Shown in pieces: positions 35,576-41,769 of a stretch of DNA of 64,000 nucleotides (position 1 is its first letter; each line of letters starts with the position of its first letter). The notes under the pieces were generated by a model, which saw nothing but the letters and a program-made list of their open reading frames with translations, was not told where the DNA came from and made no database searches. This DNA is from Escherichia virus TH38. The translations under genes and the position numbers were made by a program. The stretch lies in sequence record MT446410.1; one strand, written 5' to 3'.

Positions 35576-35860
35576 TCAACCTCTTGGGAATGGCATCAAA
35601 AATTCCACAGCAGATTTAATTTCATTATTGATTCTTGAATCACGATAAGAGATAAACTTACCTTTGCTATCACGTAACATCACATTAGTTCTGGCTGTTT
35701 TGTGAGGGAGTAATGTGACACTAGTTGGAATAGTATCAATCCCTACAGCGTATTTGTCAATAGTCTTACTTTCAGCCAACAGATAAGACCAAGTACGCGG
35801 TTTCTGCTCCGGGCGGTTAGGGTATGTGTCCCGAATTTGAACCATAGCTAACTTATTCAT
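35576..35860 (-). CDS. hypothetical protein, tandem paralog A
   Basis: Shares ARTNV.LR...GKFISY...A.E.L.PFP.G with next gene. Confidence 0.45.
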   Translation of the reverse strand: MNKLAMVQIRDTYPNRPEQKPRTWSYLLAESKTIDKYAVGIDTIPTSVTLLPHKTARTNVMLRDSKGKFISYRDSRINNEIKSAVEFLMPFPRG

Positions 35861-35861
35861 A

Positions 35862-36116
35862 TTAAACTCCTTTAGGGAATGGGATGAGATTTTCTACTGC
35901 AACACGGAAAGATTTTTCTACGTTCTTATTCTTATAAGAGATAAATTTTCCATCAGCTCCGCGAAGGAGTACGTTAGTGCGAGCTGTATTTGGGTTTTGT
36001 TGAATCATAGAACGAATGATGTTCTCTGAACCTCTATGCTTATTGGTGAATTTCCAACTGATAGTTTTACCGGTACGAGTTACATCAATAATATTTACAA
36101 TTTTTACAATAGACAT
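35862..36116 (-). CDS. hypothetical protein, tandem paralog B
   Basis: Paralog of 35576-35860. Confidence 0.45.
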   Translation of the reverse strand: MSIVKIVNIIDVTRTGKTISWKFTNKHRGSENIIRSMIQQNPNTARTNVLLRGADGKFISYKNKNVEKSFRVAVENLIPFPKGV

Positions 36117-36150
36117 ATTTATTACCTAAGAAATTTAATTTGGTTTATAT

Positions 36151-36180
36151 AAAAGAAAAGGCCACCCATTTGGGTAGCCT
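36151..36180 (-). terminator. rho-independent terminator (- strand)
   Basis: 9-bp stem (1 mismatch) then TTTTCTTTT on - strand. Confidence 0.6.
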
Positions 36181-36184
36181 CATA

Positions 36185-36502
36185 TTACGATGAGCTTAAA
36201 GCTCCTTTGCGTGCTCCAGCTGCTTTTCCAGCTCGATCACCACTTTTGCCGCCGTTTGAACGGTTTGAGCTGACTGATTCAACACGTAAGTTGCTTGACG
36301 CATTAGAACCTCCAGACTTGACAGCTCGTTTGTGTCCAACGTCTTTACCTCTGACAGCAGCTTTTCCATCGCGCTTTTCAACGATGCGACGTGCACGGTG
36401 GCGCTGAGCATCTCCGCTCTTGCTCCCAACGCCTGTCTCACCACGGGCAATTGCGGTACGTCTTTCTTGTGCATAATCTCTCTTTCCTACATGATCTGCC
36501 AT
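36185..36502 (-). CDS. small basic Gly/Ser/Lys/Arg-rich protein (stress-protein/KGG-like)
   Basis: Strong RBS aaggag 6 nt before ATG; TAATGTATA motif 37 nt upstream; low-complexity basic composition. Confidence 0.45.
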   Translation of the reverse strand: MADHVGKRDYAQERRTAIARGETGVGSKSGDAQRHRARRIVEKRDGKAAVRGKDVGHKRAVKSGGSNASSNLRVESVSSNRSNGGKSGDRAGKAAGARKGALSSS

Positions 36503-36538
36503 TTAAAACTCCTTAATATATCAGTGTACACTAAGGAG

Positions 36539-36547
36539 TATACATTA
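36539..36547 (-). promoter_or_regulatory. TAATGTATA promoter motif (- strand)
   Basis: Exact motif 37 nt upstream of ATG 36502. Confidence 0.4.
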
Positions 36548-36558
36548 TAAGTTACTGT

Positions 36559-37296
36559 TTAAGCTTTCTTTTCCATTGCTTTAACAATCGCCTTACAGAA
36601 ACCAGAACGAACAATATCATCTGATTCACCATCTACAATCTCAGCAAACTCATACAGATCATGTTCATCAATAAAGTTAGTAGCCCAAGTAAGACCACTC
36701 TCACGACCACGCATATCATGCTGGTTAGTATCACCCATGCAGAACAGCTGAGAGGTTTCTCCCAATCGAGTCATGATCGAGAAGGCTTCATCTTTAGTGG
36801 TGTTCTGGAATTCATCAACAATAACAATAGCATCATTGAAAGAACGACCACGGAGATATTCCAGAGGTACGAACTCAATGTTACTATTACCGAGCTGGCA
36901 TTCATAGAACCCCTTACCATATCGCTGAGTAATAACATCAATTATAGGCATCAGGTAAGGTTCAAACTTCTCACGCATTCCTCCCGGAAGTAACCCAAGA
37001 GAATTGCCCATGCCAACTGAAGGGCGACTCAGAATGATCTTCTGAATCTTACCGCTCTTCAGTGCATCAATAACTGTGGAAGTGATTACAAAGGTCTTAC
37101 CACAGCCCGCAGGAGCGTCTGTGAACACAACTTGTTTAGTCTTGATAGCATTGAGTAGCTCAGACTGAAACTGGTTCTGAGGGACTACAGGCTTTGCTAA
37201 AACCACCTCTTCATACTCTCGCTTACCCTTACGAGTAACAAGTGCTTCTCGACGAAGGTCTTTCCGTGATTCTTTCCGTGATTGACGACGACTCAT
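36559..37296 (-). CDS. phoH: PhoH-like ATPase
   Basis: Walker A DAPAGCGKTF plus LGLLPGGMREKFEPYLMP PhoH signature. Confidence 0.8.
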   Translation of the reverse strand: MSRRQSRKESRKDLRREALVTRKGKREYEEVVLAKPVVPQNQFQSELLNAIKTKQVVFTDAPAGCGKTFVITSTVIDALKSGKIQKIILSRPSVGMGNSLGLLPGGMREKFEPYLMPIIDVITQRYGKGFYECQLGNSNIEFVPLEYLRGRSFNDAIVIVDEFQNTTKDEAFSIMTRLGETSQLFCMGDTNQHDMRGRESGLTWATNFIDEHDLYEFAEIVDGESDDIVRSGFCKAIVKAMEKKA

Positions 37297-39947: not shown

Positions 39948-39955
39948 GTAAATCC

Positions 39956-40135
39956 TTATGCAGTCAAGAGGTGAAGCAGGAACGGGATAACAACAGCTAC
40001 GATAACCATGATAGTTGATGCTGTTTGAATCTCACCTTTCTTATCAGGAGTTTCTTCAATAAGCTTACCAGAAGCCCAATAAATACCACCACCAATAAAG
40101 ATAGCCCAAATACCCCATACGATTGCTGATAACAT
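39956..40135 (-). CDS. small two-TM membrane protein (59 aa)
   Basis: By-eye ORF MLSAIVWGIWAIFIGGGIYWASGKL...MVIVAVVIPFLLHLL; RBS aagga. Confidence 0.4.
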   Translation of the reverse strand: MLSAIVWGIWAIFIGGGIYWASGKLIEETPDKKGEIQTASTIMVIVAVVIPFLLHLLTA

Positions 40136-40195
40136 ATATCTATATCCTTATAAATAAGTTCTCCCCACCTCGGGTTAGGAGACAGGGCGGAGGTT

Positions 40196-40807
40196 TTAGT
40201 AAGACACATCACCACTTGAATGGGACATGTTGCTCTTGACGAAGTAGCAATACTTGCCAAGACCTTCATTAATTTCTTGAAGCATACTCTGATCGACAGG
40301 GTAGGTGGCTAAATCACCATCAAACTCATCCATCTTCTCAATAATACACATCAAGGTCATGCACATATCAGAGAGCATACCGTCCATGTCTAGATCAGCA
40401 TTACCCTCTGAGAACCAAGCATGGGAGAGATAATTAGCTGCTGTAGCATCCACTTTAACGCAGTGGTAACGCATACGTTCAGCAATACGATCTCCTACCT
40501 GTCGTGCGTAATCTTCCAGCTCATCAAACATACCATGAACACCCTGAAATCCTGCACCAGAGACGTTCCAGTGGTAGTTTTTAGCTTTGATATGCAATAG
40601 TTCCATGTTAGCTTGTAAGCAGCTCAGGATGTGTTCTAGGCTGTTTCCACTAATCATACCTTGCATTGTTTCAAGGCGAGAGATTGATAGGTCGGACCGG
40701 TCTAACATGCTATAACTATCACGACCAATCTCAGGTAAATCAAAAACATTCTTATGCATTTGGGTTTTCTCCATCAAGTTCAACTGAGTTAGCAACGTTA
40801 CGTGCAA
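40196..40807 (-). CDS. Dps-like ferritin-fold protein
   Basis: KAKNYHWNVSGAGFQGVHGMFDELEDYARQVGDRIAERM matches Dps signature; true start likely internal ATG (40774 or 40759). Confidence 0.6.
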   Translation of the reverse strand: MHVTLLTQLNLMEKTQMHKNVFDLPEIGRDSYSMLDRSDLSISRLETMQGMISGNSLEHILSCLQANMELLHIKAKNYHWNVSGAGFQGVHGMFDELEDYARQVGDRIAERMRYHCVKVDATAANYLSHAWFSEGNADLDMDGMLSDMCMTLMCIIEKMDEFDGDLATYPVDQSMLQEINEGLGKYCYFVKSNMSHSSGDVSY

Positions 40808-41081
40808 TATTATCCATTACCTGCTGGGTAATTACGATGCAGTTCTGTGGGTCTACTGACTTAGAACGCCCCATTTCAGGGTCATACACCTTAACTCGCT
40901 TAGCAGTTGAGCCTGTAACCTGAAGAACCTTCAACAGATATCCCTGATTACCAATAGACCAAGCAACAACATCACGATTCTTGATAAAGCGACCAAGCAT
41001 ATCACGATGATAAAACTGTTGCATCACCTTGGATTTTGTAATCTCTTCAGTGGGCGGGGCCACTTTACTCAAATCTAACAT
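40752..41081 (-). CDS. hypothetical protein
   Basis: 109-aa ORF with AAATGTATA motif 40 nt upstream. Confidence 0.4.
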   Translation of the reverse strand: MLDLSKVAPPTEEITKSKVMQQFYHRDMLGRFIKNRDVVAWSIGNQGYLLKVLQVTGSTAKRVKVYDPEMGRSKSVDPQNCIVITQQVMDNIARNVANSVELDGENPNA

Positions 41082-41120
41082 AACTCTCTCCTGTAAAATA
41101 CAAATTCTTATTGTACTCTA

Positions 41121-41129
41121 TATACATTT
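41121..41129 (-). promoter_or_regulatory. AAATGTATA promoter-like motif (- strand, 8/9 match)
   Basis: Near-exact motif 40 nt upstream of ATG 41081. Confidence 0.3.
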
Positions 41130-41153
41130 GAGAGTTATCATATCTACTACCAA

Positions 41154-41363
41154 TCAGTAGTAAATTACTTTAGACATAAAAGAACCAGTGTTAGGGTCTT
41201 CATACCAGCGATGTATGTCAGCGCTTTTTACTATTGTGCCCAGAGTCTTCAACTGTTTCTTAGCAATACGAGCCTCTTTGCGAGTGTCAAACAATTTGAT
41301 GTTATCTTTTCTCATGTGTTGCTCAAGATCCCAAACAACATGAATAGCCCACATCTTTTTCAT
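41154..41363 (-). CDS. small protein, tandem paralog 3 of 3
   Basis: 69 aa ending ...KVIYY; start overlaps previous stop. Confidence 0.45.
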   Translation of the reverse strand: MKKMWAIHVVWDLEQHMRKDNIKLFDTRKEARIAKKQLKTLGTIVKSADIHRWYEDPNTGSFMSKVIYY

Positions 41364-41572
41364 TAGTAATGTACCTTTCCGCTGATATAAACACGACCAG
41401 AAGAATACTCCTTGGCCTTATGAATACTGATGCTCTTAGTTAAGTCTACATTGAACATAGACTTTTTAAAATCTCGAGCCTGTTGACGAGTGGGTAGTGC
41501 AGTCATAGTCATACCACCTGATGCCCACTTAATCTTTGCTAACCAAAATTGTCTCATAGTGATCGGTCTCAT
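41363..41572 (-). CDS. small protein, tandem paralog 2 of 3
   Basis: 69 aa ending ...GKVHY. Confidence 0.45.
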   Translation of the reverse strand: MRPITMRQFWLAKIKWASGGMTMTALPTRQQARDFKKSMFNVDLTKSISIHKAKEYSSGRVYISGKVHY

Positions 41573-41769
41573 TAATAATAAACCTTACTGTTAACACAAA
41601 AAGCACCTTCACTATTCACGATAGCTTTTCCTAGTGTAACCTTATTAAGTCTAAAAGTAGATTTGTATTGATTTTTGACCCTACGTGCGTGCTCTCGAGT
41701 CTTAACAAAATCTACAGCTACTAACTCTCCAGTCGTGTTATCATGTACACGAACAATCCACTTTTTCAT
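41572..41769 (-). CDS. small protein, tandem paralog 1 of 3
   Basis: 65 aa ending ...SKVYY. Confidence 0.45.
   Translation of the reverse strand: MKKWIVRVHDNTTGELVAVDFVKTREHARRVKNQYKSTFRLNKVTLGKAIVNSEGAFCVNSKVYY

Follow-up and report, generated by a model that had tools for sequence, protein, structure and literature searches.

The closest described counterparts of the genes treated here are found in the phages phiEco32 (gp69, gp70, gp71, gp56, and gp57) and SU10 (coding sequences CDS69-71 and CDS53-54), where they are orthologous and syntenic members of the same two protein families, as they are in ~98 deposited genomes. We analyzed a 64,000-nucleotide stretch of Escherichia virus TH38 (sequence record MT446410.1; hereafter "the window"), in which these families form two tandem arrays of small genes, namely a triplet (T1, T2, and T3, corresponding to phiEco32 gp71, gp70, and gp69) and a pair (P1 and P2, corresponding to gp57 and gp56). 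Public records label all five genes "hypothetical protein", and both PHROG families to which they belong, phrog_4939 and phrog_6814, have their function unassigned. The phiEco32, SU10, 7-11, YF01, and BASEL papers do not discuss the triplet or pair genes, and we found no publication treating them as paralog arrays or giving them a function; the genes themselves are already deposited (~100 genomes) and PHROG-clustered. Here, we argue that the arrays are very probably two unrelated, lineage-restricted families that arose by old tandem duplications and whose distinct paralogs have been individually conserved.

The 7.4-kb stretch around both gene sets shares 94-97% identity with Escherichia phages EC.W2-6, YW01, SkaterBoy (Bas90), SU10, and phiEco32, and the window was assigned to a phiEco32/SU10-like C3-morphotype podophage of the genus Kuravirus, subfamily Gordonclarkvirinae. 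Loci were compared across 10 cultured relatives from three genera and 10 metagenomic contigs, with family members counted by hidden Markov models (HMMs; copy-number counts for 17 loci), while the occurrence of every paralog was counted by tblastn across a phage collection in the same 98 Gordonclarkvirinae records. For remote homology, each ortholog-group profile was built solely from orthologs of one positional paralog and then compared using hhalign, with 40 column-shuffled controls per comparison. Ratios of non-synonymous to synonymous substitution (dN/dS) are Nei-Gojobori estimates and were used only where dS was informative.

Every gene in this part of the window lies on the minus strand, and the five open reading frames (ORFs) at 41154-41769 and 35576-36116 were found exactly as a preliminary description, made from the sequence alone, had delineated them. 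The triplet begins directly downstream of the dCTP deaminase gene dcd (41770-42303), our context anchor, whose TAA stop abuts the T1 ATG, and then runs through T1 (41572-41769; 65 amino acids, isoelectric point (pI) 10.1), T2 (41363-41572; 69 amino acids, pI 10.6), which is the core member of the family, and T3 (41154-41363; 69 amino acids, pI 9.8), all three placed by the ORF list and phrog_4939. The overlapping stop and start codons and the common C-terminal ending noted earlier are present: both the T1/T2 and T2/T3 junctions are TAATG overlaps with one base in common, and the proteins end in KVYY, KVHY, and VIYY, with the terminal tyrosine invariant in 19/19 members and retained in 99% of 71. 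All loci examined have the array between dcd, on its upstream side, and the gp68-like and Dps genes, which follow it.

Pairwise BLASTP among the triplet proteins is marginal (E 1e-3, 0.09, and 1e-4), and we therefore tested their homology further using family matches, invariant columns, and profile-profile comparison. All three matched phrog_4939 end to end (profile positions 1-67 of 67) at E 1.2e-27 (T1), 1.8e-27 (T2), and 1.7e-28 (T3), and the family alignment holds invariant columns at W, T-R, A-R, K, and the terminal Y. In mutual comparison, the ortholog-group profiles reached 97-98% hhalign probability (E 7e-13, 6e-11, and 6e-13 over 63-68 columns). Column-shuffled controls, for the triplet and pair comparisons alike, never scored above 23, while the observed scores were 55-117. 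The homology of the triplet genes, as judged from their sequences, is thus secure and far beyond chance.

The pair is more plainly related. P1 (35862-36116; 84 amino acids, pI 10.8, net charge +9.6), the core member, is followed after one base by its paralog P2 (35576-35860; 94 amino acids, pI 10.0, net charge +6.6), both placed by the ORF list and phrog_6814, which they match in full (profile positions 1-86 of 86; E 7e-39 and 7e-37). The motif that had first drawn attention to them is present in both as TARTNV.LR..(D/K)GKFISY...L.PFP.G (BLASTP E=1e-15 over 40 amino acids), and their ortholog-group profiles match at 99.5% probability (E 2e-22 over 84 columns), with invariant columns at T-A-R-T, R, G, F, S, and L.PFP. 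At the DNA level, two short, faint repeats, in register and spaced by 289 nt, persist in the pair where the conserved motifs lie. Downstream lie a conserved gp54-like gene of 140 amino acids (35150-35572; phrog_11427) and then DNA polymerase A (33289-35133), giving a conserved block of gp58-like, P, gp54-like, and DNA polymerase genes; the pair occupies the same place upstream of the gp54-like and polymerase genes in uncultured phages of 87-100 kb. A relationship between the triplet and pair families was considered and ruled out (hhalign probability 0.4%), despite the similar β-β-α-β start of both structural models, and no further copies of either family were found elsewhere in the 64-kb window.

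Might these similarities reflect chance or composition, or the ORFs not be real genes? The weak pairwise BLASTP values of the triplet (E 1e-4 to 0.09) lend themselves to such a reading, while profiles built independently for each ortholog group give 97-99.5% probability against one another and the shuffled controls are clean, invariant columns occur in both families, dN/dS is well below 1, and the AlphaFold2 (AF2) models are confident. We give this reading practically no weight, as it is already refuted by the dN/dS values and the profile-profile controls. Both sets thus stand as true paralog families in tandem, as first proposed, and homology beyond chance was upheld by the profile comparisons where pairwise alignment of the triplet, the check first suggested, had been marginal.

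The recent diversification suggested in the preliminary description is not supported, and the duplications are old. Each positional paralog shares 41-100% identity with its orthologs across Kuravirus, Nieuwekanaalvirus, and Suseptimavirus (means 63-68%), while identity between paralog groups is only 24-32% in the triplet family and 34-39% in the pair, and dN/dS is 0.05-0.42 in every ortholog group with informative dS, which indicates purifying selection. Because the ortholog groups span three genera and are more alike within than between, the duplications are older than the split of these genera, and every copy is kept by selection. The opposite reading, that the arrays stem from duplication that is recent and still going on, with diversifying selection, could draw on a triplet copy number that ranges from 1 to 4, on a fourth tandem copy on a metagenomic contig (L015), and on two contigs (L019 and L020) whose site between trx and thyX holds two copies that may be a separate duplication. 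However, paralogs within a genome are 24-38% identical, the triplet has no DNA-level repeat beyond a chance-level 22-mer, and each paralog has conserved orthologs in the other genera under the selection described above. The families thus do not fit a recently expanded arms-race family, for which high within-genome similarity, lineage-specific copies, and relaxed or positive selection would be expected. Recent duplication is already contradicted for the five genes of the window, and we regard it as very improbable.

Two observations of more local scope accompany this old history. T3 is near-identical between the window and KBNP1711, a phage of another genus (L004, 3002-3211; proportions of non-synonymous (pN) and synonymous (pS) differences 0.006 and 0.026), while its neighbors T2 and T1 have diverged strongly (pS 0.63 and 0.70), which implies a recent recombination exchange with its breakpoint inside the array. 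Separately, an uncultured 87-kb phage (L013) carries two adjoining pair-family genes (6001-6565) that both look P2-like (…VMLRD.KGRF…), so that in this more distant lineage the pair may stem from a separate duplication.

Copy number does differ among related phages, as the comparison proposed at the outset revealed. Three tandem triplet genes occur in the window, SU10, Bas90, phiEco32, Bas89, and contig L016, while LAMP retains one (T2 only), SU7 two (T2+T3), and Bas94 two (T1+T2). In Bas88, ECBP2, and L018, two tandem copies (T2+T3 in Bas88 and ECBP2) are joined by one between trx and thyX; KBNP1711 has three tandem copies plus one at that second site, L019 and L020 have two at each, and L015 has four in tandem. 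The pair family has two copies in most phages and one in LAMP, Bas94, Bas89, and the 100-kb uncultured phage L011, with P2 being the copy missing from LAMP, Bas94, and Bas89 in the HMM counts. Present differences lie mainly in the presence or absence of particular old paralogs, plus the second site between trx and thyX. By tblastn, T2 and P1 were found in all 98 Gordonclarkvirinae records, T3 in 93, P2 in 91, and T1 in 64, which places T2 and P1 in the core of the subfamily by sequence matches, T3 and P2 nearly so, and T1 among accessory genes; the accessory status first given to all five genes thus holds for T1 alone.

The slots around the triplet are themselves variable. The dcd-triplet junction (41769/41770 in the window) is an insertion hotspot where relatives hold unrelated genes of 63-68 amino acids or an HNH endonuclease (L001 7147-7353, L009 7786-7986, L010 1794-1985, and L007 7491-8000); the inserts include the small genes SU10 gp072, Bas94_0056, and ECBP2_0069, and a homing endonuclease in Bas89. 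We considered the three small genes as divergent triplet-family members and ruled this out (hhalign probability 0.3% or less). At the slot between thyX and trx, the window carries an ORF for a 156-amino-acid HNH/AP2-type homing endonuclease (39212-39682, minus strand) that is absent there in SU10, phiEco32, and Bas90, while KBNP1711, ECBP2, Bas88, and L018-L020 have one or two extra triplet-family copies instead.

In phiEco32, promoters of the phage sigma factor gp36, with the core tAATGTAtA, have been mapped upstream of genes 6, 13, 26, 40, 58, and 68 (PMC8948821, PMC4331800), and the genes of SU10 were classed after phiEco32 into early (CDS69-125) and middle (CDS25-68) sets (PMC4281155). The gp36 core AATGTATA occurs eight times in the window against 2.7 expected, a count reached in 0/100 shuffles, at positions 2599, 20143, and 30112 on the plus strand and 27046, 30039, 36539, 41121, and 63701 on the minus strand. 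Two of the minus-strand sites, at 41121 and 36539, stand upstream of the gp68-like and gp58-like genes, where the phiEco32 promoters are mapped (PMC4331800). The first putative middle-promoter core (41121-41128) falls within the 72 nt that separate T3 from the gp68-like gene, at the early/middle boundary, while the second (36539-36546) lies upstream of the gp58-like gene and heads the unit leading into the pair; a terminator-like GC-rich hairpin with a T-run (36158-36181, minus strand) separates the gp58-like gene from P1, and a terminator is annotated at the corresponding position in SU7.

By the published early and middle classes, the triplet closes the early operon and the pair belongs to the middle class. 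By analogy with phiEco32, the triplet (genes 69-71 there) takes the last three positions of the early cluster, with the first middle promoter directly after it, and forms the translationally coupled end of an operon of primase/helicase, exonuclease, nucleotidyltransferase, dcd, T1, T2, and T3, while the pair would be transcribed as middle genes downstream of the gene-58 promoter and the terminator-like hairpin. The original placement of both sets inside the replication module stands by position; the published temporal maps, however, put the triplet at the end of the early cluster and the pair among middle genes. Proteomics of polyethylene glycol-concentrated SU10 phage detected neither family, though CDS51, 55, 56, 65, 67, and 68 were detected, which is weak negative evidence.

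The gp58-like gene itself (36185-36502, minus strand; phrog_4590) encodes a very basic, low-complexity protein of 105 amino acids rich in G, K, R, S, and A, and a 92-amino-acid ORF at 36196-36474 overlaps it completely in another frame. Its homologue SU10 CDS56 was detected by mass spectrometry, and the gene is conserved in all C3-type phages; lying between the promoter motif at 36539-36546 and the strong hairpin at 36158-36181, it looks like a short, separately controlled unit. Farther downstream, the DNA polymerase ORF as annotated (33289-35133) contains in its first 60 nt a sigma-70 promoter that fits the consensus perfectly (TTGACA, 17 nt, TATAAT, preceded by a TG; 35078-35106, minus strand); this promoter could drive an internal transcript or indicate that the polymerase start codon is mis-set.

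Structurally, the two families present different conserved surfaces. Triplet-family proteins are 65-71 amino acids long with a pI of 9.7-10.8 and a net charge of +6 to +10, and the AF2 model of T2 (predicted local distance difference test (pLDDT) score 81) has a β-β-α-β-β topology. Strictly conserved are W10 in β1, T28 at the helix N-cap, the residues R29, A32, R33, K36, and K37 of the single helix, and Y69 at the C-terminus. Of these, R29, R33, K36, and K37 are spaced at i, i+4, i+7, and i+8, and hydrophobic residues occupy positions 32, 35, and 39, a periodicity suggesting that the basic residues form a stripe on an exposed helix face capped by T28. This basic face is the sole feature common to every triplet paralog and the outgroups, whereas the sheet surfaces have diverged, which fits a common class of ligand with paralog-specific secondary contacts. 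We tentatively suggest, from the predicted fold, that triplet proteins might act through the solvent-exposed basic helix stripe by binding nucleic acid or one common acidic partner, a mechanism that we think possible rather than probable; the diverged β-sheet faces would then give each paralog its own specificity (subfunctionalization).

The same fold and conserved helix in all paralogs, together with the TAATG overlaps and the fixed gene order in all phages that have three genes, would also be expected if T1, T2, and T3 were subunits of one obligate hetero-oligomer whose amounts are equalized by translational coupling. Natural subsets speak against this, as T2 occurs alone in LAMP, T1+T2 in Bas94, T2+T3 in SU7, and T2+T3 with a distant copy in ECBP2 and Bas88; since every triplet subset occurs naturally, an obligate hetero-complex is improbable.

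Pair-family proteins are 83-95 amino acids long, mostly with a pI of 9-10.8, and the AF2 model of P1 (pLDDT 85) has a β-β-α-β-(β)-α topology in which conservation centers on the β3-turn-β4 hairpin and the L.PFP tail. They may act through the invariant β-hairpin (T)ARTNV-x-(L)R-x-x-G(K/R)F, and the persistence of this motif and of the polymerase-adjacent position into Grimontviridae points to a role linked to replication or nucleotide metabolism. Taken as a whole, old maintained paralogs acting through the basic helix and the hairpin have, in our estimate, about an even chance of being the correct account.

Beyond the subfamily, relatives are few and uncharacterized. An exhaustive triplet-profile HMM search of 1.84 billion representative proteins returned only 24 clusters, all of 65-79 amino acids, and those with readable context belonged to the same phage lineage and the dcd / gp68-like / Dps neighborhood, while word-indexed searches yielded nothing but small hypothetical proteins, encoded on contigs ~70-100 kb long. 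Searching distant metagenomic members against cultured phages by tblastn gave no new host groups, and a deep search with a broadened pair-family alignment gave no annotated relatives and no domain fusions. Single-sequence scans of triplet and pair proteins against Pfam-A and NCBIfam gave no match; across all 71 and 65 family members, no Pfam-A or NCBIfam family was matched by more than four members, all below the curated cut-off, and a sequence-profile search of the PDB with the triplet family gave no relative (best E 1.7); neither family has a PDB relative. SpoIID/LytB homology of the pair family was rejected, as a whole-sequence E-value of 0.011 corresponded to a per-domain i-Evalue of ~2 and the common "AART.V" stretch sits in a different structural context.

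Single-copy, uncharacterized homologues do occur in Grimontviridae (7-11, SE131, GAP52, Privateer, and CsaP_009) and in Aeromonas Lahexavirus (LAh_8 and LAh_9), where the slot after dcd is filled by other genes. Foldseek against BFVD matched the triplet fold to uncharacterized proteins of Salmonella SE131, Cronobacter GAP52, CsaP_009, and Aeromonas LAh_8 (template-modeling (TM) score 0.67-0.79, 16-18% identity), and a relaxed HMM search found a single triplet-like gene in Aeromonas LAh_9 (gp94, E=7e-8), two genes upstream of thyX, whose product sides with no single paralog group, as an outgroup would. The phages 7-11, GAP52, and Privateer each carry one remote homologue of the pair family, placed just ahead of DNA polymerase; these Grimontviridae proteins resemble the pair in the motif RTN(V/I).VRD..TGRF and the polymerase-adjacent position, but they end right after the motif and lack the C-terminal helix and PFP tail, while the LAh_9 homologue (gp73) is encoded away from the polymerase. 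Likeness to generic small α/β sandwich domains (PsaD, a topoisomerase III subdomain, ERH, and PII-like SbtB) is topological only, with 5-14% identity, heterogeneous functions, and no motif in common.

Finally, the BASEL study reported that Gordonclarkvirinae withstand restriction-modification and other systems remarkably well without known inhibitors, and its authors speculated that deoxyuridine-containing DNA (dU-DNA) is made through the dcd-nucleotidyltransferase locus (PMC11990801). Such phages might encode anti-defense or host-takeover inhibitors of host proteins in these arrays, the pair being an inhibitor of uracil-DNA glycosylase (UDG) like p56 that protects dU-containing intermediates of replication and the triplet a set of inhibitors with different host targets. 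The resistance report and the p56-like top structural matches of the pair model are suggestive of this. p56 is an acidic DNA mimic, whereas P1 and P2 are basic, with no acidic DNA-mimicking surface of the p56 type at net charges of +9.6 and +6.6. Further, the structural score is weak, the phage encodes ThyX, and both families are conserved rather than turning over as in an arms race. The p56 proteins of phi29 and VMY22, T4 Dmd, and T7 Gp2 share 7-11% identity with the pair proteins and no sequence-profile match, and no p56 chain was retrieved when PDB sequences were searched with a pair-family profile, with E values up to 10 allowed; the pair proteins are also 30-40 residues longer, basic rather than acidic, and carry the conserved β-hairpin motif and PFP tail, both missing from those proteins. 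We therefore consider anti-defense inhibitors an unlikely explanation. A broader proposal is a long shot: one or both families might underlie the unusual resistance of Gordonclarkvirinae to restriction-modification and most other defense systems tested, either because the triplet, as basic proteins expressed early, coats or shields phage DNA on entry or during replication, or because the pair is a new, non-acidic class of inhibitor acting on a DNA-repair or defense enzyme (e.g., Ung). In both cases, different targets would be divided among the conserved paralogs.

Tandem arrays of small genes without relatives are common in virulent phages, and the phenomenon itself is thus ordinary. Both families described here nonetheless have an old origin, are maintained by selection, and belong largely to the core of Gordonclarkvirinae, each with a sharply defined conserved surface and a fixed early or middle place, beside dcd for the triplet and beside DNA polymerase for the pair, which makes them tractable, prioritized targets for knock-out and binding studies. 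Gordonclarkvirinae are abundant, therapeutically used, and strikingly defense-resistant, yet poorly studied, and members infecting K-12 (Bas86-94) now exist.

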